Below, in pieces: positions 17,983 through 50,100 of a stretch of 64,000 nucleotides of DNA. The DNA comes from Oscillospiraceae bacterium (GTDB lineage: Bacteria; Bacillota; Clostridia; Oscillospirales; UBA644), in assembly GCA_015067305.1 (NCBI GenBank), contig SVMT01000006.1, forward strand, positions 18,751-82,750. The letters run 5' to 3'. Below the pieces are notes generated by a model, which was given only the letters and a program-made list of their open reading frames with translations, ran no database searches and was not told where the DNA came from. The position numbers and the translations under genes were made by a program. Within the stretch, counting starts at the first letter, position 1. Every line of letters starts with the position of its first letter.

Positions 17983-18101
17983 GTTCTCACCTCTTTCAAA
18001 ATCACTTTCTTAAATTGTATCATATCGGAGTTAGAATGTCAAGGCTTTTTTGTAAAACTCAAACAAATCACGGAAAAGTATTTTTTTGCACTGCATAACT
18101 A

Positions 18102-18130
18102 TTGACAAAATAACGGTTTTCTGCTATAAT
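18102..18130 (+). promoter_or_regulatory. Promoter of SBP-like lipoprotein paralog 1
   Basis: TTGACA, 17 nt, then TGcTATAAT. It is followed by the inverted repeat TTTACA-tg-TGTAAA (18130-18143). Confidence 0.65.
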
Positions 18131-18195
18131 TTACATGTGTAAATGTTGGTTTTATACTGGCAAGTTTTAACTTAAATAAAATGGAGGATTTTTAA

Positions 18196-24450: not shown

Positions 24451-24460
24451 TCATAATTGC

Positions 24461-24490
24461 AAAAGCCCCGAGATTTATTTCGGGGCTTTT
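24461..24490 (+). terminator. Terminator after GH38
   Basis: Perfect 10-bp stem AAAAGCCCCG / CGGGGCTTTT. Confidence 0.65.
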
Positions 24491-24509
24491 ATGAAAGTGA
24501 GGAAAAAAT

Positions 24510-31867: not shown

Positions 31868-31900
31868 TTTATTTAAATATTTCCGAAGGAGGAAAATGAA

Positions 31901-32080
31901 ATGCTTAATTGGTTAATGGCAAATTGGGCAACAATCTTAGTTTTGCTTGTTGTTTTGGCGGTGATAGCAGGAGTTATTGCAATCATGGTTAAAGATAAAA
32001 AGCAAGGAAAATCCTCCTGCGGCTGCTCTTGTGGAAATTGCCCTATGAGTGGAAAATGTCACGGAAAAAACGATAAATAA
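31901..32080 (+). CDS. FeoB-associated Cys-rich small membrane protein (59 aa)
   Basis: Below the ORF-track size cut-off. One TM helix, then SSCGCSCGNCPMSGKCHG. GAAGGAGGA as SD. It lies 33 nt after feoB and is followed by the operon terminator. Confidence 0.7.
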   Translation: MLNWLMANWATILVLLVVLAVIAGVIAIMVKDKKQGKSSCGCSCGNCPMSGKCHGKNDK

Positions 32081-32084
32081 TACC

Positions 32085-32136
32085 ATATGGAAGAGGCTTC
32101 TCTTTATAGAGTAAAAGCTTCTTCCATATATTTTTT
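32085..32136 (+). terminator. feo operon terminator
   Basis: 15-bp stem ATATGGAAGAGGCTT / AAGCTTCTTCCATAT with one G-T pair, then TTTTTT. Confidence 0.8.
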
Positions 32137-32290: not shown

Positions 32291-32319
32291 TTGATTTTTA
32301 CGGTTGTATATGGTATAAT
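32291..32319 (+). promoter_or_regulatory. Promoter of the ligase / giant-protein unit
   Basis: TTGATT, 17 nt, then TGgTATAAT. Confidence 0.6.
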
Positions 32320-32421
32320 ATCTCTGTATAAACTTTCGGGAGAATTGCGTCGGTTTTTGTCGGATTTTTCCTAAGTTGAATAATATTGTTATATAAAAAA
32401 AAATTTTTGTGAGGTGCTAAA

Positions 32422-34164
32422 ATGGCAAATGATGTTATGACCAAAAAGCCTTCGGAGGTTCGTCCATGGCTTAAGTATTATCCGCAAAAATCCGTTGAAA
32501 GAGCTCTTCCCCATTGCACTATTTATCAATATCTCAAAAGCAAAAACAGTAAACATCTTAATGAAAATGCTATTAATTATTTCGGTACAAATATTACATA
32601 TGATACTCTTTTTAAGCGTATTGAGCGCTGTGCCGATGCTTTCTATTCCATTGGTGTAAGAGAAGGAGATATAGTTTCTTATGTTACCGTCTCTATTCCC
32701 GAAACAGTAGTTGCTATGTATGCATTGAATAAGATCGGTGCTGTATCCAACTTTATCGACCCAAGAATGGATATTGACAGTATTAAGCGAGTTATCAATA
32801 ATGTAAAGTCCGATATCGTTATCATCGTTGATCTTGCATTCCCGAAACTGAAAGCTATCATGAAGGACGTAAAGCCCAGAATGGTCATTGTTCAGTCTCC
32901 TGCGGATTCTCTGAATCCCATTGCCGCAACCGTTTACAAGGGTAAAAATCCTCTTTTCCAGCCCATTCCATATTGCGATACCATTATAAGCTGGAAAGAT
33001 TTCGTCAGAAAGATGCCCACAACGCCTGCAGTTGAAGCTTCATACAAACCCGATTCCGTTTCCTGTATCACATATACCGGTGGTACAACAGGATTCCCCA
33101 AAGGCGCGATGCTTACAAACGACGGCATGAACGCTGTTGCTTTCAACTTCAAATATGCAGGAATACATTATGTCAGAGGTCAGCGTTTCCTTGACGTTAT
33201 TCCCGTATTTGCTTCCTACGGTGTGGTTTGCGGTATCCATATGCCACTTATTTTGGGTATTACCGATGTTATCATTCCCAAGTTGAATGTTGCTGAACTG
33301 GGCAAGATCGTTAAAAAATATAAGCCCTGTCATATGATCGCAGTTCCTGCGTATTATGAAGCTATGATGTCAAGCAAAGAGCTGAGAAATGAAGACCTTT
33401 CGTTCTTTATCACTCTCGGTTCAGGTGGTGACTCAATGAATAAGGGGCTTGAAGAAAAACTTCATAAATGGCTCCGTGCTCATAACGCTAAGTATCCTCT
33501 TGCTCAGGGCTATGGTATGTCTGAGATCTCTTCCGCAGTTTCGTTCTGCTTTAACGATATTTATAAAAGCGGAAGCGTAGGCATTCCCTCATTGACAACC
33601 ACCGTAGGTATCTTTGCTCCCGGCACCACAGACGAATTGGGCTTTGGCGAAGAAGGCGAGATCTGCATCACGGGACCTTCCATGATGAAGGGATACTTCA
33701 ACGATCAGGCGGAAACCGATAATATTATGAAGAAGCACCCCGACGGCAAGATCTGGATCCACAGTGGCGACATTGGCTATATGGATGTTGACGGCTTCCT
33801 GTACATCAAAAACAGGATCAAACACATCATCATCCGTTTCGACGGTCACAAGGTATTCCCCATCAACATGGAGACATATATCTGTAATCACCCAATGGTC
33901 AAGAACTGTTCCGTAATCGGTGTCAAAGACAAAGACCACATGCAGGGCTTCCTTCCCATGGCAGTGGTTGAACTCAAGCACGATCTTCCCGAAGGCACAG
34001 ATGTTGAAGCGGTCAGAAAAGAGATCTTCGAATCCTGCAACCGCGACCTTGAAGAGCGCGGCAGACCGTGTTCCGTGGTTCTCATTGACGAAATACCTCT
34101 TACCTCGTTTGGCAAAAACGACGTAATGAAGCTTTCTAAGATGTACGAAAACTACGACTATTGA
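32422..34164 (+). CDS. AMP-dependent synthetase/ligase (FadD-like fatty-acid CoA ligase)
   Basis: YTGGTTGFPKGAML AMP-binding motif, GYGMSE, SGDIGYMD, and an N-terminal WLKYYP. Confidence 0.8.
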   Translation: MANDVMTKKPSEVRPWLKYYPQKSVERALPHCTIYQYLKSKNSKHLNENAINYFGTNITYDTLFKRIERCADAFYSIGVREGDIVSYVTVSIPETVVAMYALNKIGAVSNFIDPRMDIDSIKRVINNVKSDIVIIVDLAFPKLKAIMKDVKPRMVIVQSPADSLNPIAATVYKGKNPLFQPIPYCDTIISWKDFVRKMPTTPAVEASYKPDSVSCITYTGGTTGFPKGAMLTNDGMNAVAFNFKYAGIHYVRGQRFLDVIPVFASYGVVCGIHMPLILGITDVIIPKLNVAELGKIVKKYKPCHMIAVPAYYEAMMSSKELRNEDLSFFITLGSGGDSMNKGLEEKLHKWLRAHNAKYPLAQGYGMSEISSAVSFCFNDIYKSGSVGIPSLTTTVGIFAPGTTDELGFGEEGEICITGPSMMKGYFNDQAETDNIMKKHPDGKIWIHSGDIGYMDVDGFLYIKNRIKHIIIRFDGHKVFPINMETYICNHPMVKNCSVIGVKDKDHMQGFLPMAVVELKHDLPEGTDVEAVRKEIFESCNRDLEERGRPCSVVLIDEIPLTSFGKNDVMKLSKMYENYDY

Positions 34165-34276
34165 TTTTCGGTAATTTTCGGCGCAAGCCGTTGATTATAA
34201 AAATTACAAAACAAAGCGAATTCACGCAAAAAATATAGGAGAAGAGTGAATCGCGAAAAAATAGGAGGAAAAAATT

Positions 34277-37200
34277 ATGAACTCAAAACACACACCCAAG
34301 TTCAAGGCGCTCCTCGCCCTGTTCTTGAGTATCAGTATGCTGTTCAGCATGGTCGTCACATCCTTTGCGGCATTGCCTCAGGATGTTGTCGATGATGATG
34401 TGATCAGATACGTTTCTATCGGTGACTCCGTTACTAATGGTTACGGCTTGGATGAATACTATTTTTACGACGCTAATGGTAAGCGAATAAATTCTACAGG
34501 TTTTCGTAGATATGTTCCTACCTCTTATCCTTATCGTATTAGTGAGATTTTAAGCGAAGCTTTAGGTATGCCTGTTGAACTTGATCCTATGGCTATTGCC
34601 GGAATGCGCTTCAATGATCTTCGTCTCATACTTGATGAGTCTTTTGGCGGCGATACATATATGGGTGATGAAAATGGCGACGGTATAAGAGAAACGGTTT
34701 GGCGTTATAATAGCGCTGTTGACTGTTGGCTTGATATTTATCTTTCAAACCCGGAAGATGATAAAATAGATCCAAATGGTACTGCTGCTAAATATATAAA
34801 AGATTATAACTATACTAAAGGTTCGGACTTGGATCCTGCTTCAAGATGGGAAATCCTTAATAATGAATTTACATTGTCAATTGAAAAAGCAGATTTTATC
34901 AGTATTGATCTCGGATCTAATGATTTTGGTACTTATCTTACAGACCGATTGATGGATTATGTACAGGGTGAAGCTTTTGATGTTTCTAAGGCAGATTATC
35001 AGCGTTTTGAAATTTTCTTCGATGAGGTTTCTGTTAAGTCTTTGGAAAACATGGTCCTTACCATGATTCAAAATGCAGGTTATGAAGAACCATTGAAGTC
35101 TGTTGTTGGAGACCTTGTTGAAACTCTTCTTTATGGCCTTGTATCTTTCTGTGGAAACTTTGATGCTTGTATGGAGTTGCTCTTTGATATCAACCCTGAC
35201 GCACAGGTGATGATTATTGATGCATACAACATGATGTCCAGTGTTAAAATTGACGGTACTGCAGTTTTTGGTGAAGGCATAAATGTCAGTGATATAATGA
35301 ATATATTTATTGATATGGCAAATCTCTACACAAGAGAGCTTTCCCCTTATGCAAGCAAAGTTCTTCATGTAGATATCGGTGCTGATTCTTATCCAGATCT
35401 TGTAATGGATTACTTTAATGATTTTTCCGGTTGGATGAATCTTGAAGATGACGAAGTAACAGAAGCAAGAACAATAATGAAGTTGTTGCTTGAAGAATTC
35501 CTTGGTGATGAATGGTCTGCAGTTGAAGAGCAGATTATTACTATTGACAACATGGAAGATGATATTTCCGGCACTATTTCACTTAATATCATCAGCGCAA
35601 TTCTTGAAAACGCTCAGACCTCTGTTGAGGGCGTTAACCTTGTTAAAAAAGCAGTTGACGGTGTTGCACAGGCAGAATCTCTTATTGGTAACATCACTTC
35701 TACATACGTAGATACTGCATTTCTTGAAGGATATCTCCCCGATATTGTTGCCAAATATGACGGAACATCTTTAGAATCAATTATAAGATCAAACATCAGC
35801 AGTACAGTTGAAGACCTTTTGAAGGATGAATCTTTAGCGTCCATGCTTCCCCAAGAGGTTACTTCTTCAGTAATTTCTGATATGGTATATGATGTAGCTT
35901 TAGCTTACGGAAAATCTACATCCAACGAAGCTAAAAATGCGGTTATAAAAGCGGCGGTTATTGACATTTTGGAACTCGCACAGAGTTGCGATGAAGCTTA
36001 TGCTAATTTCATCTACAATATAGTTTCGGAATATAATGATGAAGCAAATACAACAGATAAAGAAAAAATGGTTGCCGCTATCACAACATATCTTAGCGCT
36101 GACACATCTATTGAAAAACCCGAAGCTATGGCTGAACTTGCATATACAGTATACTGTATTTACGATGCCGTTGTAGTTAAAGGTACTTTAGCTGACGCAA
36201 ATGATGTTATTGCCGTATTGACAGCGCTGTACGGTGATCGTCTGTTGCCTGAACAGATAAACGCAATAGGTGCTTGCTATTCGGGAAATTATACTGATGA
36301 GGAGCTTGTGACTGCTGTTTCCACATTGATGGCTTTGGGCGGATACGCTGACAGCATTGATATGTATAAATTGTATCATCAGTTTCCCTATACATTATCT
36401 GAAATAGCACAGAGCAATACTATTTATCTTGATTCATTCTTGCCGTATTTGGCTGGAAAGGCTTTGGATTTTGACGGTATTGCTGCAAGATTTTTCAGCG
36501 ATGATGATCCCTTGATTCTTACTGAACCTGACAGAGAAAAATATGAATCTGACGAAGCGTATAATGAAGCTTTTGAAATGTTCAAGCATGACTCCACACT
36601 TCTTACAGTTTATATCAGATTCCTCTCCCTCACAGGTTTGTTTGTTCACCCCAATTCTACAGGACATGCAACTTTTACGGAAGTAATATCAGAATATCTT
36701 GATAAGTTCGTTCCCAATGTGGCTGCAGGTGACGATGTTTACGAGCTCAGAACCGATATCGAATATAAAGTTCTTGCTATCGGCGACGAATATATTAAAA
36801 ATGTTGAAGATTGTTATGCTGAGAAAGTTGCAGAGGCTTTGGACAGCACTGTTAAATATCAATCATATCCCGGTTGGACAGTAGGGGAAACTCTTACTTT
36901 TGCTAAGAATAATCCTGAAAATATTTCCGGTTATGACTTGATCCTCCTTAATGTCGGTGCTTGGAATGTAGGCTATATTGCAAAATATCTCAACTCTAAC
37001 GGAACAGCTCCCATAGATCTTACAGATATTGATATCCTTGATGTTTCAAAAGATGCTGACGGTAAAAACAGTATCGGTGAAAGATTCGAAGACATGCTTA
37101 GCGGCGACGATATGATGCTCATGGCTAAGGCTATGATGTATGGTTACGCTGACTTCGCAAACAGCATTGAGCCTCTTGTTGAAACTCTTCTTGATACAGG

Positions 37201-40003
37201 TGCTACCGTTGTTATCGTTGGACTTGATAAACTTATGTCCGACAACTCTATCTTTGCACTTGGTGAAAACCTTACATTTAAACTTGATCTCCTTATTGAA
37301 AAACTTACAAGTGACTTTAACGGTCATATGGAAGTTATAGCAGATAAATACGAGAATTGCTACTTCACAGATATCTCCGGTGTAAATACAGGCGTTTCCA
37401 CTCCTGTTGTGATTACTCCCAACGGTGTTGGAGATATGGCTACAATGATGGGTGAAACACTCTTTGATGAATATGAACATGAAGAGATCGCAAAGAGAAT
37501 CATTTGTGATACCCTTGGTATTCACGTTCCTAATGCTGACGATGAAGGAACAACTGAAAAGATAGCTACTTTGGACGAATGTTGCTACGTTACATATAGC
37601 GGATGTGAATTGTGCGGAGTAGGTTCTTTCACAAGAGAAGTCGAACATGTTTGGGGTATGTACTTGATAGGTAGTGATGAGGCTACAGGTAAGGACATAC
37701 TTGAGGCAAAATGGGCAGACGACTTTACTTCTGCAACACCTATTTTGCGTTGCCCCGCTTGTGATGTGGAAACTCTTGCTGAATACTATACATCTGAAAA
37801 CATTACCATTAAAAAATATGAATCTTGTGAAGAAGACGGATATTGGAACTATACTGTTACATTTGACATTGGCGGAGAAGAATATGTGAATGTTTACAGT
37901 CGTGAAGTTGGTCCTACGGGTCACAAGTACGTCGAACCCACTTGGGAATGGACTAAGAATGAAGATGGCGTTTACGTAAATGCTGAAGCTACATTCGTTT
38001 GCGCTAACGACGAAGAACATGTTGAAAAAGTTTCCACAGAAGAATTCTCTGTTAAGGTAGTTACAGAACCCACTTGTACAGGTGAAGGTGAAAACGAATA
38101 TACCGCTACAGTTGAATTTAACGATAAAGAATATTCTAATACTAACCCCGAATATGTTGTTGTAGACAAGATCGCTCACGCTTACGACAAACCTGTTTGG
38201 GCTTGGTCTGAAGATCTTTCCGAAGCTACAGCTTCCTTCGAATGCATTTCTTGCGACGATGTTCAGGTTGTAGAAGCTGAGATCGAATCCGAAACAACTA
38301 AGTCTACTTGTCTTGAACACGGCGAAACAGTTTATACTGCAACTGTAGTATTCGGTGACGACAAGAAAGAATTTACAGATTCTATAACAGTAGAGCTTGA
38401 ACTCGGCGATCACGATTATGTTGATGATATCTGCTCCGTTTGCGGTGAAAAAGACCCCGATGCTCGTCCCGACGAAACAGGCGACTGCGTATATGTAACA
38501 GAAGAAGAACTTGACGCTGACGGTGTTTACACAATGACTCTCGGTGGTGAAGAGGTTGGCGAATTTGAATTCATTGCGGTTGACGGCGGTTGGACGATTT
38601 CCGATGACGGTGAATATCTTGCAATCGAAAACGGCAAACTTGTTTACAGTGAAAATGCGTTTGTTTGGACATTTGAAGATGATATGTTCAGCGCAAGCGA
38701 AACTGTAGTTGAAGAAATCAAAAAAGGCTTCTGGGGCGGTCTCTTTGGCGGTTCCGACAGCACAGAAATCGTAGAAACTACAACAACATACTACCTCGCA
38801 GTTGTTGAAGACGAACTCACAGCAGGCGAGATCGGTGATGCGGCAGAATTCTCTGTTAAACATCATGATGACAAACACAGCTACGACGAAGGCGTTGTAA
38901 CTAAACCCACTTGCACAGATAAGGGTTACACAACTTATACTTGCGAAAAGTGCGGCGAAGAATGTGTTTATAACGAAAGAGAAAAAATCGAACACAACTA
39001 CGTAGACGGCAAATGTGAAGACTGCGGTAAGCTTGAGGATGTTGAAGAACCCGAAGAACCTGAAGAAAACTGCATCTACATTGAAGAAGTTGAGCTTGAA
39101 GAAGACGGTTCTTATATTCTCTCTATCGGCGGCTATGAAGTAGGTAAATATACTGTTACGGCAGTTGATGACGGTTGGACTATCTTTGATGAAAAAGATG
39201 AAACATATCTTGCAGTTCTTAACGGTATCCTCGTTTATACAGATGAAGAGTTTGTTTGGGCTTATGATGAAGAAGAATGCAAGTTCTTCTATGAAGATGT
39301 TAAGGTTGTAACTACAACAAACAACTTCTGGGGCGGACTCTTCGGAGGTTCCACATCAACAGAGACTATCGTTAATGTTTACTACATCGTTCCCGAAGAA
39401 GATAAACTCGTAGTTTCTGAAGATGATGAACTTGCAGAAGTAACCTTTGAGGTCATTGTTGTTGAAGAAGGTCACGACTATGTTGACGGTATTTGCGAAA
39501 ACTGTGGTAAGTGCGAAGATGATACCTGCGTACACTTCGATGCTGTAGAGCTTGAAGAAAACGGCGAATACGTACTTATTATCGGTGATGAACATCTTGG
39601 CTTCCATACATTTGAAAATGTTGACGAAGACCTTTGGACTATCGTTAATGAAGACGGCGACTATGTAGCACTTGAAGATGGCGAGATCGTTTACACAAGC
39701 GAAGAATTCGTATGGACATACGATTCCGAAAAATCCGTATTCTCTGTTGAGATCGTAACTGTTGCGACAAGCGGCTTCTGGGGTGGACTCTTCGGTGGAA
39801 ATACTTCTACAAAGGTAGAAACTTATTATCTTGTTGCTGAAGACGGTAACCTTGCTGTTTCCTTGAAAGACAAGACTGCAACAGCTGAATTCCTTGTTGA
39901 AGTCGAAGGCGAACATGAATACGGCGACTTGGAAGATTACTACGGTTTGGGTCGTTCTTTCTGCGAAAATTGCGGTACAGTAAAATTTGAAATTGCTGAA
40001 TAA
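34277..40003 (+). CDS. Giant secreted acidic protein: split SGNH hydrolase, degenerate SGNH-like domain, Cys-rich modules and three FWGGLFGG repeats
   Basis: AGGAGGA as SD. Signal peptide ending SFA/A. GDS at 34421-34429, GSND at 34907-34930, HPNSTGH at 36647. One uninterrupted 1908-codon frame. Strong terminator at 40019-40049. Confidence 0.8.
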   Translation: MNSKHTPKFKALLALFLSISMLFSMVVTSFAALPQDVVDDDVIRYVSIGDSVTNGYGLDEYYFYDANGKRINSTGFRRYVPTSYPYRISEILSEALGMPVELDPMAIAGMRFNDLRLILDESFGGDTYMGDENGDGIRETVWRYNSAVDCWLDIYLSNPEDDKIDPNGTAAKYIKDYNYTKGSDLDPASRWEILNNEFTLSIEKADFISIDLGSNDFGTYLTDRLMDYVQGEAFDVSKADYQRFEIFFDEVSVKSLENMVLTMIQNAGYEEPLKSVVGDLVETLLYGLVSFCGNFDACMELLFDINPDAQVMIIDAYNMMSSVKIDGTAVFGEGINVSDIMNIFIDMANLYTRELSPYASKVLHVDIGADSYPDLVMDYFNDFSGWMNLEDDEVTEARTIMKLLLEEFLGDEWSAVEEQIITIDNMEDDISGTISLNIISAILENAQTSVEGVNLVKKAVDGVAQAESLIGNITSTYVDTAFLEGYLPDIVAKYDGTSLESIIRSNISSTVEDLLKDESLASMLPQEVTSSVISDMVYDVALAYGKSTSNEAKNAVIKAAVIDILELAQSCDEAYANFIYNIVSEYNDEANTTDKEKMVAAITTYLSADTSIEKPEAMAELAYTVYCIYDAVVVKGTLADANDVIAVLTALYGDRLLPEQINAIGACYSGNYTDEELVTAVSTLMALGGYADSIDMYKLYHQFPYTLSEIAQSNTIYLDSFLPYLAGKALDFDGIAARFFSDDDPLILTEPDREKYESDEAYNEAFEMFKHDSTLLTVYIRFLSLTGLFVHPNSTGHATFTEVISEYLDKFVPNVAAGDDVYELRTDIEYKVLAIGDEYIKNVEDCYAEKVAEALDSTVKYQSYPGWTVGETLTFAKNNPENISGYDLILLNVGAWNVGYIAKYLNSNGTAPIDLTDIDILDVSKDADGKNSIGERFEDMLSGDDMMLMAKAMMYGYADFANSIEPLVETLLDTGATVVIVGLDKLMSDNSIFALGENLTFKLDLLIEKLTSDFNGHMEVIADKYENCYFTDISGVNTGVSTPVVITPNGVGDMATMMGETLFDEYEHEEIAKRIICDTLGIHVPNADDEGTTEKIATLDECCYVTYSGCELCGVGSFTREVEHVWGMYLIGSDEATGKDILEAKWADDFTSATPILRCPACDVETLAEYYTSENITIKKYESCEEDGYWNYTVTFDIGGEEYVNVYSREVGPTGHKYVEPTWEWTKNEDGVYVNAEATFVCANDEEHVEKVSTEEFSVKVVTEPTCTGEGENEYTATVEFNDKEYSNTNPEYVVVDKIAHAYDKPVWAWSEDLSEATASFECISCDDVQVVEAEIESETTKSTCLEHGETVYTATVVFGDDKKEFTDSITVELELGDHDYVDDICSVCGEKDPDARPDETGDCVYVTEEELDADGVYTMTLGGEEVGEFEFIAVDGGWTISDDGEYLAIENGKLVYSENAFVWTFEDDMFSASETVVEEIKKGFWGGLFGGSDSTEIVETTTTYYLAVVEDELTAGEIGDAAEFSVKHHDDKHSYDEGVVTKPTCTDKGYTTYTCEKCGEECVYNEREKIEHNYVDGKCEDCGKLEDVEEPEEPEENCIYIEEVELEEDGSYILSIGGYEVGKYTVTAVDDGWTIFDEKDETYLAVLNGILVYTDEEFVWAYDEEECKFFYEDVKVVTTTNNFWGGLFGGSTSTETIVNVYYIVPEEDKLVVSEDDELAEVTFEVIVVEEGHDYVDGICENCGKCEDDTCVHFDAVELEENGEYVLIIGDEHLGFHTFENVDEDLWTIVNEDGDYVALEDGEIVYTSEEFVWTYDSEKSVFSVEIVTVATSGFWGGLFGGNTSTKVETYYLVAEDGNLAVSLKDKTATAEFLVEVEGEHEYGDLEDYYGLGRSFCENCGTVKFEIAE
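38411..40003 (+). repeat. Three in-frame tandem coding repeats (~150-200 aa each) in the giant gene
   Basis: The units start at H-x-Y-V-D-x-x-C-x-x-CG (38411, 38993, 39473). Each contains FWGGLFGG (38729-38752, 39326-39349, 39776-39799). Confidence 0.85.
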
Positions 40004-40018
40004 GCGATAAATAGTATA

Positions 40019-40049
40019 AGAGGATGGGCAATTTGCTCATCCTCTTTTT
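40019..40049. terminator. Bidirectional terminator between the giant gene and the acyltransferase gene
   Basis: AGAGGATG-N11-CATCCTCT followed by TTTT. It lies between convergent stop codons at 40003 and 40054. Confidence 0.8.
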
Positions 40050-40053
40050 GTGA

Positions 40054-41376
40054 TTATTGAATTTTGTTTAACCGTTCTGCTCGTTTAGCAAGGCGCTTTT
40101 CCATTTTCTGCTTGTAAAGCTCTTCCGTAGCGAAAGAAAGTTTCGTGATCACATTTTGCTTGGTGGGGTAGCAGTAGAGTGAATCTTTTGAGGTTGAAAT
40201 ATCTATGCAGTCATCGGGGCGGACATAGCAATAGTCATATTCCACGTGAACTCCGTACATGCCCGGGACCATGCGGCTTATCTTATATTTTTTGCCGTTC
40301 AGCTCGCCCTCTACAGTAAATCCGTTGTAGTTGTGGGTCAGTTTTCCTTTTCCTAACTTTTGGAATTTCATGCAGGAGGGGAGAGAGTAGATTTCAACTT
40401 CATCTTCAAAGTAGTATTTCCCTTCGTCGATCTCCTTTCGGACATTTGCGCGTTCCCATTCAAACCAATCGGGAATATGGGAAAATTCCGTTTCGCCGCT
40501 GAGTGCCTTCAACCTTCCAAGTTCATCCATTTCCCACTCTTTGCCGCATTCCTTGCAGAAAATTTTCGTTCCTTTACTGTCCATTTTGCTTTCTGTCAGA
40601 CAATGCGGACACTGATAGAGTATCTTATGCAATCCCTCTGCACGGAATTCTTCGGTAATTCTGATATTTTGCTCTTCCTGCCACTTGTATTCGTTGTACT
40701 TCATAGCGTCCGTCAGCTTTTGCTGAATTTCCTCGGAAGTCATTTTTTCAATGTCTTCGGGCTTAAGGACACATGTCATTGTGGTGTGTAATGGAGCTTT
40801 TCTTGGTTGTCTGTAATTCCAGAAAGGTGTGTGGAGATAGTTTCCGTGGTGGAGAAGCACCACTACAGGTACATTCATTTTTTTCGCTAAATGTCCGAGA
40901 GAGTTTGGTAGGATCGCCGTTGTTCCCGCAGGGGAGTATCTTGCTTCGGGGTACATTGACATTACGCCTTTTTTCTTGAAAAGCACGTGCTCAATGGATT
41001 TTACGAGTTCCGGGTCTGTGGTGAATTTTCTCTTGCACATGCAGCCGATAAGCTCCATAAGGAACGGTCTTCTGTAGTATCCGTCTACGGTTGCAATGTT
41101 GTAGACCTTATGGGGATAAGTTGCAATGGAATTCAAATAGAAATCAACGAAATACATGTGGTTGCTCAATAAAATATAAGGCGGCTTGATGCCCTCCATA
41201 TTTATCTTTTCAACTTTGTATTCCTGACCCATCATAAGAATTTTGCTCAAAGCAAAAATTGCAAAGGTGAAGATTCCTGCCTGGGTCATGGGTAATTTAG
41301 ATGTATCGTAGTGCTTTACGTTTTTGCCGTAAGGTACTTCATCGTAGATGATCTCTTGAATTTCAGTGTTTTCCAT
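40054..41376 (-). CDS. PlsC/LPLAT-family acyltransferase with a C-terminal zinc-ribbon extension
   Basis: NHMYFVD (HX4D) and YPEARYS (block III) motifs, plus CPHC...CKEC. The ATG at 41376 has an AGGGGGA SD immediately after the MFS stop codon. Confidence 0.7.
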   Translation of the reverse strand: MENTEIQEIIYDEVPYGKNVKHYDTSKLPMTQAGIFTFAIFALSKILMMGQEYKVEKINMEGIKPPYILLSNHMYFVDFYLNSIATYPHKVYNIATVDGYYRRPFLMELIGCMCKRKFTTDPELVKSIEHVLFKKKGVMSMYPEARYSPAGTTAILPNSLGHLAKKMNVPVVVLLHHGNYLHTPFWNYRQPRKAPLHTTMTCVLKPEDIEKMTSEEIQQKLTDAMKYNEYKWQEEQNIRITEEFRAEGLHKILYQCPHCLTESKMDSKGTKIFCKECGKEWEMDELGRLKALSGETEFSHIPDWFEWERANVRKEIDEGKYYFEDEVEIYSLPSCMKFQKLGKGKLTHNYNGFTVEGELNGKKYKISRMVPGMYGVHVEYDYCYVRPDDCIDISTSKDSLYCYPTKQNVITKLSFATEELYKQKMEKRLAKRAERLNKIQ

Positions 41377-41389
41377 ATTGATTCCCCCT

Positions 41390-42685
41390 TTATTTTTCAA
41401 TTACTATTTTCTGATTTCTTACTACTTTATAGAGGTACAATGCCAGAATTATGAGTATTACAGAGCTGATAAGCGAGAGTATTTGTTGCGGATAGACTGT
41501 TATTCCAAGAATTTGGTTGCCGTTGGCTTCGATTTTTTGGATAAATACGGATTCTATACAGGAAGTAAGAAAACCTGCCACACCGCCGATTGCTGATTTC
41601 CAGCCGATGGCTACACTTCTGTTTTCTTCCTTGACGTAGTCGAATGTCAGATTCAGGATACCGCTGTTGATGCCTGCCATAGATATTGCAAAGATCATGT
41701 AATATATGGTGTATGTTATTTTGCCTGTTTCAGGCGTGCTGAATGTGTTGATGAAAAAACCGATCGAAGCGATAATAACGCATATTCTCAGCATTTTTTC
41801 CCAGGAATGTTTATCTGCGTATTTGCCAAAGGGAACGGAGAAGAAAGATCTGACGACGCTATATAGGAATGTTAGAACTGCTATAAATGTCATACTGAAA
41901 CCGAGGGTATTACGCTGAAAAGCTCCGAATGAATAGGTTGAGGCATTTGCGATGTAATAAAGTACGAAAACAACGATTATGTGGCGATAGGATTTATCTA
42001 AAATCGTCACTTTGAGAGAGTCTTTCAGTCCTTCAAGGAACGGTTTGTGTTCGTACTCCGCTTCGATGTGGTTGTCTTTAATAAGGCACATGGAAATAAA
42101 ATGAAGTATTGCAAGACCGATTATCGTAATGCCACCGGCGATAAAACTTCCGCTTATGTTTCCTGCGGCTTCAAATGAGTCGATTATCTGACCCATAATG
42201 AAGCTGAATACTACACCTCCGATGAGCGAAACGATCTCTTTTTTCGCTGTAAAAACGCCTCTGTGACCGTTCTCAACATTTGACATATGCCAAGTTGTCT
42301 TGAACGGACAAAGTGAATGTTCTATCATGCTTCCTGCAATTAGCAAAAACAGAAAGATTGCGGATTTTATACCTGTAGGAATATTAAAAAACGGCGTGAA
42401 ATACATCAGCGCAAAAAGCATTTGGTTGAAAAAATTCCATGCTGTTACCCAACGCTTGACCGATGAGGTCTTATGTATCAGAAGTACGGAAAAAAGTTCC
42501 GCCGAGAAAGTCATTGTTACAAGAGACGAAATGACCGTTTGAGCCGCCGTTGAAAAGCCTATATCGTTGAGCAGATTTGTGAGATATGCTCCCGTTATCA
42601 TTATTGAAATAAAGTATTCCAGTGCCGCTTCGGCGATATATGCGCCACGGCTTATTTTTCCCTGTTTTGTATTTAAATTCGACAT
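41390..42685 (-). CDS. MFS transporter
   Basis: 431 aa with about 12 hydrophobic segments. Its stop lies 13 nt upstream of the acyltransferase start. Confidence 0.75.
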   Translation of the reverse strand: MSNLNTKQGKISRGAYIAEAALEYFISIMITGAYLTNLLNDIGFSTAAQTVISSLVTMTFSAELFSVLLIHKTSSVKRWVTAWNFFNQMLFALMYFTPFFNIPTGIKSAIFLFLLIAGSMIEHSLCPFKTTWHMSNVENGHRGVFTAKKEIVSLIGGVVFSFIMGQIIDSFEAAGNISGSFIAGGITIIGLAILHFISMCLIKDNHIEAEYEHKPFLEGLKDSLKVTILDKSYRHIIVVFVLYYIANASTYSFGAFQRNTLGFSMTFIAVLTFLYSVVRSFFSVPFGKYADKHSWEKMLRICVIIASIGFFINTFSTPETGKITYTIYYMIFAISMAGINSGILNLTFDYVKEENRSVAIGWKSAIGGVAGFLTSCIESVFIQKIEANGNQILGITVYPQQILSLISSVILIILALYLYKVVRNQKIVIEK

Positions 42686-42827: not shown

Positions 42828-43580
42828 ATGAACAAAACAGAAGAAAAACTTTTTATTGAGTCCGTTTTTGATGAATTTTCCCTTAATGTGAAAGCTATGG
42901 CTAAATATATTTTAAAAGACGAAGACTTGGCAGAAAAGGCTGTATATAGAACTTTTGTAAAGATCATCATAAACATGAAGCTTTTCGATGATGTTGAAAG
43001 TGAAGATTTCCGTCGTCTTGTAGTGGTGTTTCTCCGTTGCTCTTGCTATGAGATCTTACGTAAAAAAAGAAGAATTGAATACAGTCAGAAATTTGAAGCC
43101 CCCGAAACATACAACAATTACGGCACGTGGAATAAGATACTGAAAAAATCAACCCTTCGTTGGCTCAAAAATACTTTTACTTCATTCGGTTCTCCGTTCA
43201 AGGAGATCTGTATCCTGAGATTCTACTACAACATGGATATAAAATATATTGCACGGGCACTCACCATGAACAGATGGGATGTTTTGGCTGTATTGAGCAG
43301 ACGTTTGGTACAGCTGAGGAATGAAACGGAAAGTTTTGTCGGTGAATTTGTCTCAAATGCGGAAATGGGGCTTGCAATATCGCTTGTCAGCGGTGAATTT
43401 GTGGAAGAAGAATTTGCCCGTATGAACAAATTTGATGTCACACGGGTAAAGGTTGCCTCAAAAACAAAGGAGAAAATTTTGAACAAGCTCAAATTCGTCA
43501 GAGCGAAACCCTTTATTGTATTGGGACTTGCCGCGTTTTTGGTGCTGGTTTCTGTAATCGTAATTTTGGCAGTTTTGTAA
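42828..43580 (+). CDS. ECF-like sigma-70 family factor with a C-terminal tail-anchor TM helix
   Basis: Region-2-like (DLAEKAVYRTFVKII...FLRCSCYEILRKKRR) and region-4-like (ILRFYYNMDIKYIARALTMNRWDVLAVLSRRLVQLR) segments. About 85 extra residues follow, ending PFIVLGLAAFLVLVSVIVILAVL. Confidence 0.65.
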   Translation: MNKTEEKLFIESVFDEFSLNVKAMAKYILKDEDLAEKAVYRTFVKIIINMKLFDDVESEDFRRLVVVFLRCSCYEILRKKRRIEYSQKFEAPETYNNYGTWNKILKKSTLRWLKNTFTSFGSPFKEICILRFYYNMDIKYIARALTMNRWDVLAVLSRRLVQLRNETESFVGEFVSNAEMGLAISLVSGEFVEEEFARMNKFDVTRVKVASKTKEKILNKLKFVRAKPFIVLGLAAFLVLVSVIVILAVL

Positions 43581-43669
43581 GAAAATATTTTATCGTGGAA
43601 CTTTTGGAAATATTTGTCGTCTAAACAGTGAGAGCTAAAACTCTTAATATATTTGAAAGGATCGGTATT

Positions 43670-45016
43670 ATGAAAAACTTTTTTGCAATGTTGCTTGCTT
43701 TCGCAATGCTTTTTACGATGATTGGTTGCGGTGAAGTCTCCGGAATTTCAGAAGAGGATTCCGTGAATGATGAAAATATCACGGATGAGATCGAAACCGA
43801 TTTGTTGGATTCTGTTTCCGTAAATGACGAAGAATCTGAAAAAACTGAAAAGGTTGAAGAACCCAAAGCGCCTCAAGAGGTAACGCTTAGATCTGACCAT
43901 GCGTATGATTTAACTAAATATGACGGATTATTTAAATGGCTTCCTAAAAACAAAGAGGATACGATTGTTTGGGCTGAAACTTCAATTTGGACTATGTACG
44001 GAGGTAAAGAGACTTACAGTACTTTTTATATTATGGACGCTGTTCCTCAGTTCAGGGAAAAGAATGAAGATACTGTTGCTTTGAATCAGACCGCTTCTGA
44101 TTTTCTTGAATCTATGGACGGAAATCTGTATACGTATATTTGTGGCGATCGCAATGATATAGTTACAGTTTTATCTGAAGTAAAAACTATTGGTTCAGAA
44201 CCTTGTTGGTTGAATTACGGTTATGACTTCATTAATGATTGCCGTATTTCCATGAAAGAGTATCTTGAAAAACGTGGAATTTTTGAAGCTGAAATAATCG
44301 AAGCTGTAAATGAAAACGCATATTTGCTTGATTATCTGACTGTTCCGGATGGAGTTACTGCGGAGATCTGTCTTGAATTCGATGGCGATTATTGTATGAT
44401 GCTGCCTACAAGAAATGATGCAATAATTTTCTATTCTGTTGTTTATCATTCAGATTCTGATGAGATAATTCCATATAAAGTCGGTTCTGTGACATTTGCT
44501 TTAAAACCCTTTGATTACGAATTGCAAGAGGCTTTTGCCGATGATCTGGATTGGTTTTATGATGGAGTCTTCGTACATTCAGTACACTCTTATATGGAAG
44601 ATTCGATCAGTGTTTGGGGTGGGCTTCCTCTTTTGAAGAGTGATTCCGAAGACGCAAAAAAGATAAATGCTCAAATTATGTACAACAGATTCGGAATGTT
44701 GGGTTCTGATGTTTATAAGCGTCCCGACAATATTTTGGTTCTTTCATTGACATATGAAACAACTTGTCATGGGATAGATCGTCCGTCTTATGTTTTCAAC
44801 ACCGAAACAGGAAAACGGATTTCAAACTATGATTATCTTATATCTTTGGGTATTGACTTTGATGAGGTTGTAGAAAAGATACTTGAAAAACCCGGTACTC
44901 TTTATAGCGATCAAATAGATTTCAGGTCGGGAAACGATTACAGTTTCAATTTTGTTGACACTGATACCGTCAGAATATTTTATAATGAATACAGCAGCAT
45001 AGAAATTGATTTCTAA
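43670..45016 (+). CDS. Hypothetical lipoprotein (448 aa)
   Basis: Lipobox MIGC, an acidic linker and no recognised domain. GAAAGGA as SD. It lies 90 nt downstream of the sigma gene. Confidence 0.6.
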   Translation: MKNFFAMLLAFAMLFTMIGCGEVSGISEEDSVNDENITDEIETDLLDSVSVNDEESEKTEKVEEPKAPQEVTLRSDHAYDLTKYDGLFKWLPKNKEDTIVWAETSIWTMYGGKETYSTFYIMDAVPQFREKNEDTVALNQTASDFLESMDGNLYTYICGDRNDIVTVLSEVKTIGSEPCWLNYGYDFINDCRISMKEYLEKRGIFEAEIIEAVNENAYLLDYLTVPDGVTAEICLEFDGDYCMMLPTRNDAIIFYSVVYHSDSDEIIPYKVGSVTFALKPFDYELQEAFADDLDWFYDGVFVHSVHSYMEDSISVWGGLPLLKSDSEDAKKINAQIMYNRFGMLGSDVYKRPDNILVLSLTYETTCHGIDRPSYVFNTETGKRISNYDYLISLGIDFDEVVEKILEKPGTLYSDQIDFRSGNDYSFNFVDTDTVRIFYNEYSSIEIDF

Positions 45017-47101: not shown

Positions 47102-50100
47102 TTATGCTCTCCAGTTGGGGTTATAGGTTGAAATGTCAAATCCGTTGAGCATTTGCACTTTGAAATTCTTCACGGCGCAATACTTTTCATTGATTTTATC
47201 GTGGCAGAGATTAGCCAGCGCATGGTAGAGTGGCTGATGAACAGAGAGATGTACAAAATTGTATACGGAGAAATTCTTCACACCGATTTCTTTCAGCTTT
47301 TTCCGATTTTCAATGATCGTTTCTGCGTCTGACGGCCAAGAGAATATGCCGCCGTAGAATTTTACGTTGTATTTTGCCGCAATTTCCATGTACTTTTTTG
47401 CGCCCTCAATGATTTTTTTGAGGTCATGAAAATGGAAACGTCTGACGGTTTCAGTTACTTTGCACTTTTCGATGTATTTTTTCATATCAATGAATTCGCC
47501 ATCCATGCAGTCGTCAATTTGCTCGTAAAGCTCCATAGTATCCTGGCAAATGCAGTCTATAAGTCCGTTTTTCGCCCAAGTTTCAATGTCAATGCCGATA
47601 TGCTTTGCTGTTTCAGGGCTGTAATCCGTAATAATGTTTATTTTAACGTGTCTGCCTGCGAATTCATCAAGCTCTTTGCGGAGTTTCGTCATGAATTCCG
47701 TCATGAATTCACACCATATTCCGTGCATTCTGGGGTCTTTTATCGGCAGCAAGCAAGGGTCAATATCGGGATATTTTTCATGGAAACGTTTGATTACGGG
47801 TTCTTCAAAGCCTATCATGATTCCTCTGTGGAGAATAAGCGAGACTCCGTCAAAGCCATAGCCGAGCGCTTCTTTGAAGCCGTTTATCGCATAGTCCCAA
47901 ACTTCGGGATATGCAAAGGAGCAAACCTGAACAGTTCTTCCGTCACGGGTCTTGCAGAACATCTCCGAATGTTTTTGCACGAATCCGGTTTTGATATGAC
48001 CGTCGAAATCAATGCCCAAATCTGCAATACTCATTCGGTAGGCGGCAAGAGCTTCCACATTGATGCTATGGAGAAAATCTATCTTTGTTTTGTAGTATTT
48101 TTCTTTGTTTTCTCGGTGGACTGTATCTCCGTCAGCAATGAGTCTTGATGCTTTCCTCATCATTGTTTCGGGGGATTTTTTAACATCGTAGTCTGATGTT
48201 ATTTCCATGGAACAGATTTCGGCATCTGAATTTTTAAGTCTTGAATACCTCGATAAAACATTATCGTTTTCTGCAATGGCTTCCATGGTGTTTTCGTTGC
48301 CGTCGTAGTGATAATGAGCGTTTTTATTGCTTTTTGTGGAGGTATATGCCTTATACTCTTCCACCTCTTCGGTGGTCATTTGTTCAAATTTAAACCAAGC
48401 AATGGCTACGCCTTTAGCATTGAATCCTTTCGGCTTTTTCAGAATGATATCATTGTCGCTCATGTCTGCACATTTCCAGAAAAACTCCTGAGCATATTCG
48501 TAAGGTGCCCATTTGGACGGGGTTCCCTCCTTGGGCGGAACTACCGATTCGAATGCTATGTCAGAGGAAAGTTTCAAGTGGAATCTGTTCTGAAATTCCA
48601 TTTTGATAGTGCAAATATATATTCTGTGCCAACCTTTTAACTGCGGTGCGAGTATTACATCTTCAGGCACTGTTTCTTCTCCTGCTACCAATGCTTTCCC
48701 TTTGGTTTCGCCGATCTCGTAGTCCATTGCGAACCAGTTTTTGGAAGTGAGATCTGCGGTTACGGCATTTTTATTTTTTACTATTTGCGTGAGATCTGAA
48801 AATAGGATTTCCTTCATTATTAAAACCTTCTTTTGAGAATATTTATTTTTCAACCAAGCGGCATGTGTTGATTCTTTGTCGAAAGTCTTGCCTGCGGAAG
48901 CGTAGTCGATAAGAATAAGCTCGTCACCGTCTGTTGTCGGGACTGAAACTGTAAGCTCTGCATCGGGAATCACTTTGTTTAAGAGGATTTTTCCGTCAAC
49001 GGTTCCGTCCTTATTGAAGTTTATGGAAACAGGTGTTTTCGGATCAACGCCTGCTCTGCGGTCGATTGCAAGTATCAAAGCGCCTTTGCGCAATGCAACG
49101 TAATCATTTTTATAGGGTGAATCTTCGGGAGGATCTATGCGGAAAATGCGGGAATCAAATTCGATTTCCACAATATTTCCCGTTTCCCATGTCTTTTTGA
49201 TATGCTTATAGCCATTTTCTGCCGGAATATCCTCATGGTTTACTTTGATTTCAGTGTTTTTGCTCCATTCGGGTATTCTGAGTGCCAGATCAAACAGCTC
49301 TTCTTCACAGTTAACAGTAATTTTAATGGAATTTCCGTAAGGGTAGTCCGATTTTATATCAAATTTTGCGATTTTTCCGCTGGGGGTTTGTGCTGAAAGG
49401 TGACCGTTAAGATAGAAATTCAGAACTATACCATCTTCGGAGATCAATGCGGCGTGGGATGCAACCGTTCCGAATGCCATTGGGCTGATGCACGCACAGC
49501 AACCGTAAAAACTTCCGTCGCTCATAACTTTCATTCCGCCTGTCATTATCCCTTTTTCGGTTGCACGCAGGGCACTGTAACTATCAAAAGGCAGGAATCC
49601 GCAGTAATTTTTGCCGTCTGAAGAAACTTTTACTTCGTTTTTGTGAGTATTTGCCGCACCGATAAACGCATTGAAGAATGTCTGTTCAATGCAATCCGCA
49701 TAAGCAGGGTCTCCCGTTAGACGCAAAACCTGACCGCAGTATTTCATCCATGTGACGCTGACGCAAGTCTCTTGCATTATGCCATCAAATTTCGGGTCAA
49801 CCTGGCTGAGACGTGTGTTGTCGAAGATCTCGTGAGTGCAGCCGCTGCAACCGATGATCGAAATTTCATTTTCACGGACCTTTTCTGCAAAGTTGATTAC
49901 CGCTTTTTTGTATTTTTCAATACCCGTCAGACGGTAGTATTCCGCAAGCCCCTCAAAGCATGACATCGTTTCATAAGCTTTCTGTTCAGGGTATTGGTGG
50001 GGGAGAAGCTCATTTTCGTATGCCAATTTAAAAATTGTAAGTTCGTTTTCCGAACCGTGGCAGACCTCCACAATGTAATCTGCAAAATCCATGTATTCTT

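Follow-up and report, generated by a model that had tools for sequence, protein, structure and literature searches.

A giant secreted SGNH esterase-like protein with a cassette-variable catalytic half and an acyl-CoA-ligase-like partner in an Oscillospiraceae bacterium

Background

SGNH domains are best known as hydrolases, and they also catalyse O-acyl transfer in the Dlt and Pat/Oat systems, where DltA is an AMP-binding enzyme. Beta-trefoil carbohydrate-binding modules (CBMs), among them CBM13 and CBM42, often accompany carbohydrate esterases; surface proteins of Clostridioides difficile include SlpA, whose S-layer cassettes come in several types, and the phase-variable CwpV, which is under the RecV inverton; and in Escherichia coli LplT-Aas, transporter, acyltransferase and acyl-activating domains serve lysophospholipid salvage. 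Cellulosomal SGNH hydrolases have been demonstrated to be p-coumaroyl/feruloyl esterases (PMC12774918). Here, we analysed a stretch of 64,000 nucleotides (nt) from an Oscillospiraceae bacterium (assembly GCA_015067305.1, contig SVMT01000006.1, positions 18,751 to 82,750 of the forward strand), hereafter the window, in which one open reading frame (ORF) encodes a giant protein of 1908 amino acids (aa) with an SGNH hydrolase-like core.

We report that this ORF encodes a real secreted esterase-like protein of an uncultured Clostridia bacterium from the gut, the architecture of which had been described accurately in an earlier note made from the letters of the DNA, and that its gene is paired with an acyl-CoA-ligase-like gene. 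Our preferred reading, to which we give a probability of about 0.5, is that the giant protein would be a surface-exposed or substrate-bound esterase and that the acid it releases (fatty or hydroxycinnamic) would be activated by the partner ligase.

Results

The giant protein and its split SGNH core

The ORF and its parts are listed below (window coordinates, strand, description).

34263-34268, plus: Shine-Dalgarno sequence AGGAGG, 8 nt 5' of the ATG, read from the sequence
34277-40003, plus: giant ORF, uninterrupted, 1908 aa, ATG start
34277-34369, plus: signal peptide (aa 1-31), from hydrophobicity and 100% identity between alleles, with a predicted cleavage site
34370-35401, plus: N-terminal part of SGNH module 1 (aa 32-375), with blocks I and III and strands beta4-beta5, from invariant columns
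34427-34429, plus: codon of S51, block I GDS
34919-34921, plus: codon of N215, block III GSND
35402-36601, plus: all-helical insert (aa 376-775) between beta5 and block V, from low-confidence AlphaFold2 (AF2) secondary structure
36602-36721, plus: block V of SGNH module 1 (aa 776-815), FVHPNSTGH, with H, P and G invariant
36647-36649, plus: codon of H791, the block V His
36722-37546, plus: SGNH module 2 (aa 816-1090), with GDE for GDS, Leu for the block V His and alpha/beta secondary structure
37547-37921, plus: Cys module a (aa 1091-1215), lying within the variable cassette
37922-38446, plus: Cys modules b and c and the first H-x-Y...CxxCG knuckle (aa 1216-1390), 96-98% identical between alleles
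38474-38896, plus: large repeat 1 (aa 1400-1540), predicted to be beta-trefoil-like, with an AF2 predicted local distance difference test (pLDDT) of ~95 and ~12 strands
38897-39058, plus: PTCT...YTC..CG mini-module and knuckle (aa 1541-1594), read from the sequence
39059-39472, plus: large repeat 2 (aa 1595-1732), from self-comparison
39515-39943, plus: large repeat 3 (aa 1747-1889), followed by the last CxxC knuckle and the stop codon

The protein opens with MNSKHTPKFK followed by ALLALFLSISMLFSMVVTSFA and then AL after the predicted cleavage site, which, read by eye, gives the n/h/c layout of a type-I signal peptide; with the sole hydrophobic stretch of the protein at aa ~8-34, this points to export by Sec and removal of the signal peptide. 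The composition is strongly acidic, with 390 D and E residues (20.4%), 111 K and R residues (5.8%) and an isoelectric point (pI) of 4.05, and nearly all of the 38 Cys residues lie beyond residue 1100. Neither an LPxTG motif nor a C-terminal transmembrane segment was found in the sequence, Pfam and NCBIfam gave no SLH, dockerin, CWB2, choline-binding, LysM or sortase signal match, and a lipobox is excluded by the lack of Cys within the signal peptide. NCBIfam as a whole returned no match, and nothing rose above threshold in Pfam, NCBIfam or the PDB sequences, so that no described family spans the whole protein; one PDB match, ScoC, in the full-length or N-terminal-profile searches was judged spurious. 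No characterised family of adhesins or esterases proved homologous over the full length; all full-length relatives were uncharacterised metagenomic proteins. Thus, the earlier description of a single uninterrupted ORF with a strong Shine-Dalgarno sequence, encoding a secreted protein very rich in D and E that has no recognisable anchor and a combination of modules outside any described family, holds on every point.

Membership of the SGNH superfamily is well supported by the sequence motifs and by relatives that pass the Pfam thresholds, the giant protein itself being an outlier. In an alignment of nine homologs (49-59% and 26-28% identity to the giant protein), block I reads GDSVTNGYG, with G49-D50-S51, N54-G55 and G57 invariant and GDSVTNG(Y/F)G as the homolog pattern; block III reads GSNDFG, with G213, N215, F217 and G218 invariant (G-x-N-(D/N)-F-G in the homologs); and H791-P792-x-x-x-G796 of block V is invariant. 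In samples of 36 and of 26 wider family members, the block I Ser is invariant or nearly so as G(D/A)S, and the block V His is nearly invariant. Overall, the catalytic motifs are kept across homologs at 26-59% identity and across alleles at 23-50%. The Pfam GDSL threshold is passed by 16 of the 36 sampled members, and scores among the relatives reach 51.4 bits (P0020) and 46.7 bits (P0006).

The nucleophile S51 and the His H791 stand 740 residues apart, and 545 aa separate blocks III and V, a spacing that extends up to 1186 aa in P0006. At the other end, the 453-aa relative P0076 has an identical block order, with block V only ~100 aa beyond strand beta5; since such short members share the order, the insert of the giant protein is an expanded form of an insertion typical of the family. 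The low-confidence AF2 model of aa 32-1090 (eight sequences, pLDDT 62) shows an uninterrupted all-helical stretch at aa ~390-790 between the alpha/beta cores, and the only high-probability (1.0) Foldseek matches of this model were the GDSL esterases/lipases 8ik1, 7e16, 5mal and 4hyq, with E ~0.03, which is not significant. Between alleles, the insert is the most divergent segment (23-27% identity).

SGNH module 2 reads IGDEY where relatives have GDS, so that Glu replaces the nucleophile, and in the clade of the giant protein Leu replaces the block V His; its counterpart in P0006 reaches 46.7 bits with Lipase_GDSL_2 (cutoff 32.9). Judged by these residues, module 2 is a pseudo-enzyme, a true SGNH copy that is dead. 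Two SGNH modules in tandem are the rule in the family, according to the consensus of wider members. A 21-nt direct repeat, 95% identical, at 35114-35134 and 37175-37195 encodes LVETLL in both modules, and the second module of P0004 aligns to aa 286-367 of module 1, both of which fit an old tandem duplication of module 1 as the origin of module 2. Beyond it, self-comparison resolves aa 1091-1390 into three Cys modules of ~80-90 aa each, of which module c is modelled by AF2 as a six-stranded beta unit with pLDDT >90. These modules are also present in SLH-, LRR- and Flg_new-bearing surface proteins, a distribution that would suit a stalk role, and they are followed by three ~140-aa repeats that are mutually 40-48% identical by self-comparison. 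The modular order first read from the sequence, with SGNH catalytic blocks spread over ~750 aa, a second SGNH-like region lacking the nucleophile, ~300 aa of Cys-containing modules and three large tandem repeats, is therefore confirmed.

The ligase partner and the operon

The features that frame the giant ORF as part of a transcription unit are the following.

32291-32319, plus: promoter-like site TTGATT-17-TATAAT with a TG extension, upstream of the ligase gene, from a consensus scan in which the number of promoter-like sites in the region was not above shuffle expectation
32422-34164, plus: AMP-binding (class-I adenylate-forming) acyl-CoA-ligase-like gene, 580 aa, with Pfam AMP-binding at 218.7 bits and AMP-binding_C at 42 bits, both above threshold
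40018-40046, plus: intrinsic-terminator-like hairpin with a 13-bp stem and a T-run, 15 nt past the stop of the giant ORF

The gap between the ligase gene and the giant ORF is 113 bp and holds no terminator in the window, while the hairpin downstream is bidirectional and common to the giant ORF and the convergent gene that follows. A ligase gene (~572-583 aa) lies directly upstream on the same strand in 9/9 homolog loci. This arrangement is shared by the window, the three close loci and every distant locus examined (L004-L010), and the other neighbours of the L004-L010 pairs are unrelated. We then scanned genomes with the ligase alignment, taking one genome per species, which gave 80 loci from metagenome-assembled genomes of gut Clostridia, mostly from ruminants and other animals, 75 of them with enough downstream sequence. 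The next ORF after the ligase matched the SGNH profile in 50 of these 75 species loci, and an SGNH match lay elsewhere on the same strand in five more; these counts hold for this ligase orthogroup (at least 49% identity), not for ligases generally. A plasmid database searched with the ligase was uninformative. Taken together, the gene order indicates that the ligase and the giant gene form a conserved two-gene operon, with the giant gene in the distal place.

Among 26 paired SGNH proteins, 11 carry a dockerin and 4 an SLH domain. The idea of the ligase as a helper of anchoring was rejected, since pairing occurs regardless of the anchor type. No third gene is conserved with the pair in 44 paired loci, the commonest extra neighbour being a second SGNH paralog (19/44), which suggests that the family grows by local paralogy. 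In many species, two or more SGNH-family giants were also seen around the ligase, as at L016:5349-9872, L081:7378-9960 and 15774-19394, L060:6507-10667 and L090:284-3169.

Concerning the specificity of the ligase, the best NCBIfam models are long-chain-fatty-acid--CoA ligases, all far below cutoff (best 280.7 vs 476 bits), and no NCBIfam match above cutoff assigns it to a substrate-specific equivalog (FadD, 4CL, MenE or Acs). Its closest PDB relatives are plant 4-coumarate-CoA ligases (4CL), then FadD8, FadD-1 and feruloyl-CoA synthetase. Its GEICITG motif resembles 'box II' of 4CL, GEICIRG, and serves as a lead only.

The hypervariable allelic cassette

The window was compared with two conspecific contigs, L001 and L003, in 300-bp windows, which delimited one segment of the giant ORF.

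34372-37918, plus: hypervariable allelic cassette (aa ~32-1215), with blastn breakpoints at 34372 and 37919

These breakpoints coincide with the end of the signal peptide (34372) and the start of Cys module b, aa 1215 (37919). Within the cassette (34400-38000), DNA identity is 43-59% to L001 and 44-74% to L003, two of the L003 windows accounting for the values up to 74%, whereas the flanking windows within 32300-41500 are 95-100% identical, except for the first L003 window (32300-32599, 80%). Likewise, the ligase is 99% identical in aa to those of L001 and L003 and 92-93% to that of L002, against 49-59% for the giant protein at the same loci. By part, the identity of the giant protein to P0001/P0002 is as follows.

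Signal peptide: 100%
SGNH1 core: 41-50%
Helical insert: 25-27%
SGNH2: 44-60%
Cys module a: 30-31%
aa 1216-1908: 96-99%

Synonymous divergence (dS) is ~1.5 in the cassette, which is saturated, while the flanks give 0.05-0.12 for the same pairs of genomes, and the ratio of nonsynonymous to synonymous divergence (dN/dS) is below 1 in all parts of the giant ORF, with 0.3-0.44 in the cassette, so that this region is still constrained. The combination of saturated dS and low dN/dS points to old or imported alleles under constraint; indeed, because all of them are intact ORFs with conserved catalytic motifs, the cassettes are neither in decay nor a product of faulty assembly. P0001, whose flanks are 97-98% identical to the window, and P0003, whose flanks are ~80% identical, share a cassette type (SGNH1 cores 86% and inserts 79% identical), so that one allele class spans two lineages; the sister species L011 has another cassette type. 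No further alleles came from a scan of genome contigs with the whole protein or from a scan of metagenomes with the conserved C-terminus. Programmed variation was considered and rejected, as there are no silent cassettes, second family copy or flanking inverted repeats in the window, and variation by a diversity-generating retroelement does not fit a 3.5-kb cassette. We conclude that the mechanism is allelic replacement through recombination in the conserved flanks.

The C-terminal repeats

AF2 modelling on a 19-sequence alignment around aa 1296-1600 gave an all-beta repeat region (pLDDT 89), in which the repeat of ~135 aa has 11-12 strands at pLDDT ~95. When this model was searched against the PDB with Foldseek, the beta-trefoil lectin SeviL (6lf1) was the sole high-probability match (0.92-0.97). 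In addition, 13 repeat copies scanned singly against Pfam gave sub-threshold matches to Fascin (PF06268) in 6/13 and to FRG1 (PF06229) in 4/13, with E ~1e-3; the region of P0006 homologous to the repeats also matches Fascin; and the alignment shows three Y-L...G...L/V...F/W sub-repeats per repeat. We consider that the repeats probably adopt a beta-trefoil-like fold.

Each repeat has an invariant aromatic/Gly loop, FWGGLFGG, at aa 1485, 1684 and 1834 (nt 38729-38752, 39326-39349 and 39776-39799), and this loop is the sole low-confidence part of the repeat model. Its counterparts in relatives read WWGSWGG, WFSSIFG or similar and follow poly-Ser tracts, and P0025 terminates in such a motif. H-x-Y...C-x-x-C-G knuckles flank every large repeat, and the mini-module at aa 1541-1594 is homologous to tandem modules of P0012, P0013 and P0015, which are SLH-bearing and other surface proteins. 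An indexed search with the repeat profile returned two fragments only. Carriers of SLH, dockerin or CWB2 number 0/9 among trefoil-bearing lineages and 30/61 among other members (Fisher p = 0.008). The repeats thus appear to sit where relatives have these anchors, and the mutual exclusion favours, though it is no proof of, an equivalent retention or targeting role for them.

The wider family and its invertons

An exhaustive HMMER search with the N-terminal profile matched 1363 clusters at E<=1e-3, while the stricter limit of E<=1e-30 left 376. Only ~13 of them matched over the whole profile, long insert included, the wider family covering profile positions 1-375. A spread sample of 36 members included 7 with SLH, 7 with dockerin and 1 with CWB2, and by eye the C-termini of P0022 and P0027 are CWB2-like. 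These profiles place the giant protein in a clostridial SGNH family of considerable size that is uncharacterised and largely attached to the wall or to scaffoldins. In addition, matches to Apolipoprotein-like amphipathic helices occur in 10 of the 26 paired relatives (best E 2e-24).

In 10/44 paired loci, an orthologous tyrosine recombinase of ~280 aa ends 400-600 bp upstream of the ligase. All eight gaps tested between the two contained perfect or near-perfect 18-28-nt inverted repeats around 170-316 bp, with arms related across species, at the positions below.

L015:9559-9928: inverton-like segment
L017:9613-9962: inverton-like segment
L019:9589-9929: inverton-like segment
L030:2087-2419: inverton-like segment
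L037:9481-9702: inverton-like segment
L052:9587-9922: inverton-like segment
L058:9592-9876: inverton-like segment
L084:9406-9685: inverton-like segment

As an example, the L058 segment contains a perfect sigma-70 promoter, TTGACA-17-TATAAT, pointing away from the operon (OFF orientation), and in L004 a serine resolvase stands at the position of the recombinase. By their layout, the segments between recombinase and operon in these other species have an inverton architecture, and the predicted phase variation of the orthologous operons fits a surface-exposed product under fluctuating selection. An inverton in the lineage of the window was rejected, since the window, L001-3 and L011 have neither a recombinase homolog nor the inverted-repeat motif; the inverted repeats of the window are short AT-rich ones only.

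Other genes in the window

Downstream of the giant ORF and elsewhere in the window, the following genes were found.

40054-42685, minus: convergent pair of a 447-aa protein and a 430-aa MFS transporter
50721-52271, minus: conventional SGNH esterase with a GxDLY N-domain and Lipase_GDSL_3 (121 bits), unrelated to the giant protein family
47102-50710: 1201-aa GH127-like beta-L-arabinofuranosidase, adjoining the conventional SGNH esterase
21361-26462 and 56607-58655: GH38 alpha-mannosidase, GHL6/fucosidase-like protein and GH92 alpha-mannosidase
31897-32080, plus: small ORF after feoB, a hydrophobic helix and then the Cys-rich tail CGCSCGNCPMSGKCH
32085-32129: hairpin terminator following this small ORF
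42828-45016, plus: extracytoplasmic function (ECF)-type sigma factor (weak NCBIfam matches), then a 462-aa protein without family match, both kept in L001 and L002
26690-27736, plus: 348-aa protein with a sub-threshold nSTAND3 NTPase match, kept in L001

The 447-aa protein has a marginal PlsC-type acyltransferase match (22.7 bits vs a cutoff of 23), and the pair is kept only in the closest relatives L001 and L003, with the MFS gene alone in L002. The GH38, GHL6 and GH92 genes suggest the use of N-glycans or mannosides by the organism, the small ORF looks like a FeoB-associated Cys-rich membrane peptide, and the sigma factor and the 462-aa protein may form a sigma/anti-sigma pair. At the feoB-adjacent position, L002 and L003 have extra HMA and DUF2325 genes. 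Rfam gave no match in the window.

Discussion

A proposed role for the pair

We propose that the two-gene operon would work as a 'release outside, activate inside' module. The giant protein would leave the cell by Sec and lose its signal peptide, and SGNH module 1 would be the active enzyme, with Ser51 as nucleophile, Asn215 in the oxyanion hole and His791 as base, hydrolysing an acyl ester on an insoluble extracellular substrate. The helical domain of ~400 residues just before the catalytic His would probably form a lid or a substrate-docking surface above the active site. The freed carboxylic acid would then enter the cell and be thioesterified by the co-transcribed ligase. The dead module 2 and the Cys modules may serve for binding without catalysis and as a stiff stalk, while the trefoil-like repeats would be lectin-type modules that tether the protein to a glycan (the cell's own wall polymer or the substrate) as a substitute for SLH, dockerin or CWB2. 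Being exposed, the enzymatic half would be kept as deeply divergent cassettes that are swapped by homologous recombination between the signal-peptide and stalk sequences, and in other species an invertible promoter would switch the same operon.

Candidate substrates are long-chain fatty-acyl esters (lipid, cutin or suberin) and hydroxycinnamoyl esters of the plant wall. A hydroxycinnamoyl substrate is favoured by the 4CL-like PDB neighbours of the ligase, by the dockerin-bearing relatives and the herbivore-gut origin of most relatives, and by the precedent of cellulosomal SGNH p-coumaroyl/feruloyl esterases (PMC12774918). A fatty-acyl substrate is favoured by the NCBIfam neighbours of the ligase, by the Apolipoprotein-like helices in paired relatives, by the lipase 5mal and the phospholipase A1 4hyq as structural neighbours and by the PlsC-like acyltransferase and MFS pair that lies downstream in this genus.

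Several points weigh against the role proposed here. The analysis shows the architecture, the kept catalytic residues, the pairing with the ligase, the mosaic and the fold class of the repeats, while catalysis, substrate, coupling to the ligase, the part played by the repeats and the selective agent are deduced, every functional statement on the giant protein resting on sequence inference. The residue three before the block V His is Leu in place of the canonical Asp, although a Ser-His dyad or an acid located elsewhere may serve; the Gly of block II is not conserved, the giant protein having AIAGMR (G109), P0001/P0003 SSMR and the family consensus ISSMR; and the Pfam scores of the giant protein itself are sub-threshold, with 17 bits for Lipase_GDSL (cutoff 23.6) and 14.5 for Lipase_GDSL_2 (cutoff 32.9). 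The confidence of the model of aa 32-1090 is too weak for the fold of the insert or for the geometry of the active site, that is, for how close S51 and H791 lie to each other. The pair has no conserved transporter beside it, and adjacency is no proof of metabolic coupling. The trefoil assignment is based on sub-threshold matches, that to SeviL being below significance (E 0.08, TM-score 0.42-0.44), and if the repeats are substrate-targeting CBMs the giant protein may simply be released. Finally, the alleles compared are three conspecific and two from sister species, and a variable catalytic half beside a conserved binding half is unusual.

Among the alternatives, an ordinary carbohydrate esterase such as one that deacetylates glycans of plants or the host, freely secreted with CBM-like repeats and uncoupled from the ligase, is unlikely, yet it deserves the most attention. 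Many carbohydrate esterase families lie within the SGNH superfamily, many relatives have dockerins, beta-trefoil CBMs are generally known to be frequent on such enzymes, and glycoside hydrolases (GH38, GH92, GH127 and GHL6) abound in the window, which also contains another SGNH esterase. However, the ligase adjacency holds across 50/75 species whose other neighbouring genes are unrelated, a pattern difficult to account for if the two genes were not linked in function, acetate needs no ligase of the 4CL or fatty-acyl-CoA synthetase (FACS) type, and no Pfam or NCBIfam model of a carbohydrate esterase matches the giant protein. That the protein is instead a variable surface antigen or adhesin, with binding or shielding as its main role and the esterase fold as secondary, we regard as a slightly poorer explanation. 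It would account for a hypervariable exposed half on a conserved stalk or binding half, for the inverton-controlled relatives, for the lectin-like repeats and for one SGNH copy being already dead, and it mirrors what is generally known of CwpV and SlpA in C. difficile; against this, S51, N215 and H791 with their contexts are invariant amid 25-50% identity, which argues for selection for catalysis, and the conserved ligase partner would be left without a role.

The pairing of an AMP-binding protein with an SGNH protein is also superficially Dlt-like, as if an extracytoplasmic acyltransferase (like DltD, PatB or OatA-C) modified an envelope polymer with an acyl group activated by the ligase. This is improbable in our view: neither a carrier protein nor an MBOAT or AT3 protein is conserved beside the pair, which leaves no acyl route across the membrane, the ligase is FACS/4CL-like and not DltA-like, and the dockerin-bearing relatives would sit on scaffoldins, off the wall. 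Still less credible is a polymorphic toxin, an antibacterial lipase or phospholipase with a variability that stems from an arms race with immunity proteins, a reading that draws on the extreme polymorphism of the enzymatic part and the lipase-like fold and that gene context largely refutes. Indeed, the variable part is N-terminal or internal and not C-terminal, no variable immunity gene is adjacent (the upstream ligase is 99% conserved and the downstream gene convergent and conserved), the export signal is of the Sec type rather than an LXG, Rhs or type VII secretion system trafficking domain, and no silent or extra cassettes are found in the window.

Coming back to an esterase coupled to its ligase, a broader claim would be that the ligase-SGNH pair is an undescribed but widespread acid-harvesting module of gut Clostridia (at least 50 species), with a lid-bearing surface esterase that would take a specific hydroxycinnamate or long-chain fatty acid from insoluble material of the diet or host, a CoA ligase dedicated to its activation, ancient trans-specific cassettes in this lineage or phase variation by dedicated invertons in others, and a new trefoil-type module as a non-covalent wall anchor; taken as a whole, we put this forward as a tentative and rather doubtful extension. 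If the coupling is real, it would give uncultured gut Clostridia a common but unannotated way to obtain ferulate, coumarate or fatty acids that are ester-bound in fibre or lipids. Such a route would bear on how phenolic acids and lipids are metabolised in the guts of ruminants and other hosts, and on the discovery of lignocellulose enzymes. The locus is in addition a clean natural example of a catalytic domain that occurs as deeply diverged alleles within near-identical genomes, and the cassette divergence, together with inverton control elsewhere, points to a commensal surface enzyme under strong selection from phages, immunity or the niche. The trefoil-like repeat is a candidate for a new retention or targeting module of Gram-positive surface proteins.

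Comparison with known systems

The catalytic fold is a known one, and we see nothing that would form a new category of its own. The combination, for which we found no description in Pfam, NCBIfam, the PDB or the literature searched, comprises an SGNH core that is split by a giant helical insert and followed by a dead copy, a stalk of unannotated Cys modules, trefoil-like repeats where a classical anchor would stand, a conserved CoA-ligase partner and an allelic cassette covering the catalytic half. With the SGNH/GDSL superfamily (PF00657, PF13472), the giant protein shares the block I GDS, the block III GxND, the block V His-Pro and the alpha/beta core, its structural neighbours being Geobacillus GDSL esterases (8ik1/7e16), a Streptomyces rimosus lipase (5mal) and a phospholipase A1 (4hyq). 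It differs in that its core is split by a 400-aa helical insert (100 to >1000 aa across the family), that it measures 1908 aa against ~200-350 aa for characterised members, and that it has a dead copy in tandem.

Compared by description, Ccel_1060 and Ccel_2017 of Ruminiclostridium cellulolyticum (PMC12774918) are likewise secreted clostridial SGNH proteins outside the carbohydrate esterase sub-families; they carry a C-terminal dockerin, as do many relatives of the giant protein, and their products, p-coumarate and ferulate, would suit its 4CL-like ligase partner. They have a single catalytic domain with the dockerin, whereas a ligase partner, an insert, a dead copy and trefoil repeats are not reported for them. 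Concerning beta-trefoil lectins and CBMs, the repeats resemble them in their ~135 aa, all-beta content, ~12 strands and three sub-repeats each, and depart from known trefoil lectins in the FWGGLFGG loop and the H...CxxCG knuckles.

The downstream MFS and PlsC-like acyltransferase genes, taken with the ligase, recall the LplT-Aas salvage of lysophospholipids in E. coli, and we treat this likeness as a lead. Here, the acyltransferase match is marginal and has no NCBIfam counterpart, and the pair is not kept beyond close relatives; as it is not conserved beyond the genus, we rejected it as a part of the module. The closest parallel for the mosaic is offered by the C. difficile SlpA cassette types and CwpV with its RecV inverton, in which a conserved wall or binding part is likewise joined to a divergent exposed allelic part, and relatives of the giant protein also have a recombinase and inverted-repeat switch. 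The giant protein itself differs from them in having no CWB2, which two family members have, and no inverton in its lineage, and in that what varies is an enzyme whose catalytic residues are conserved.

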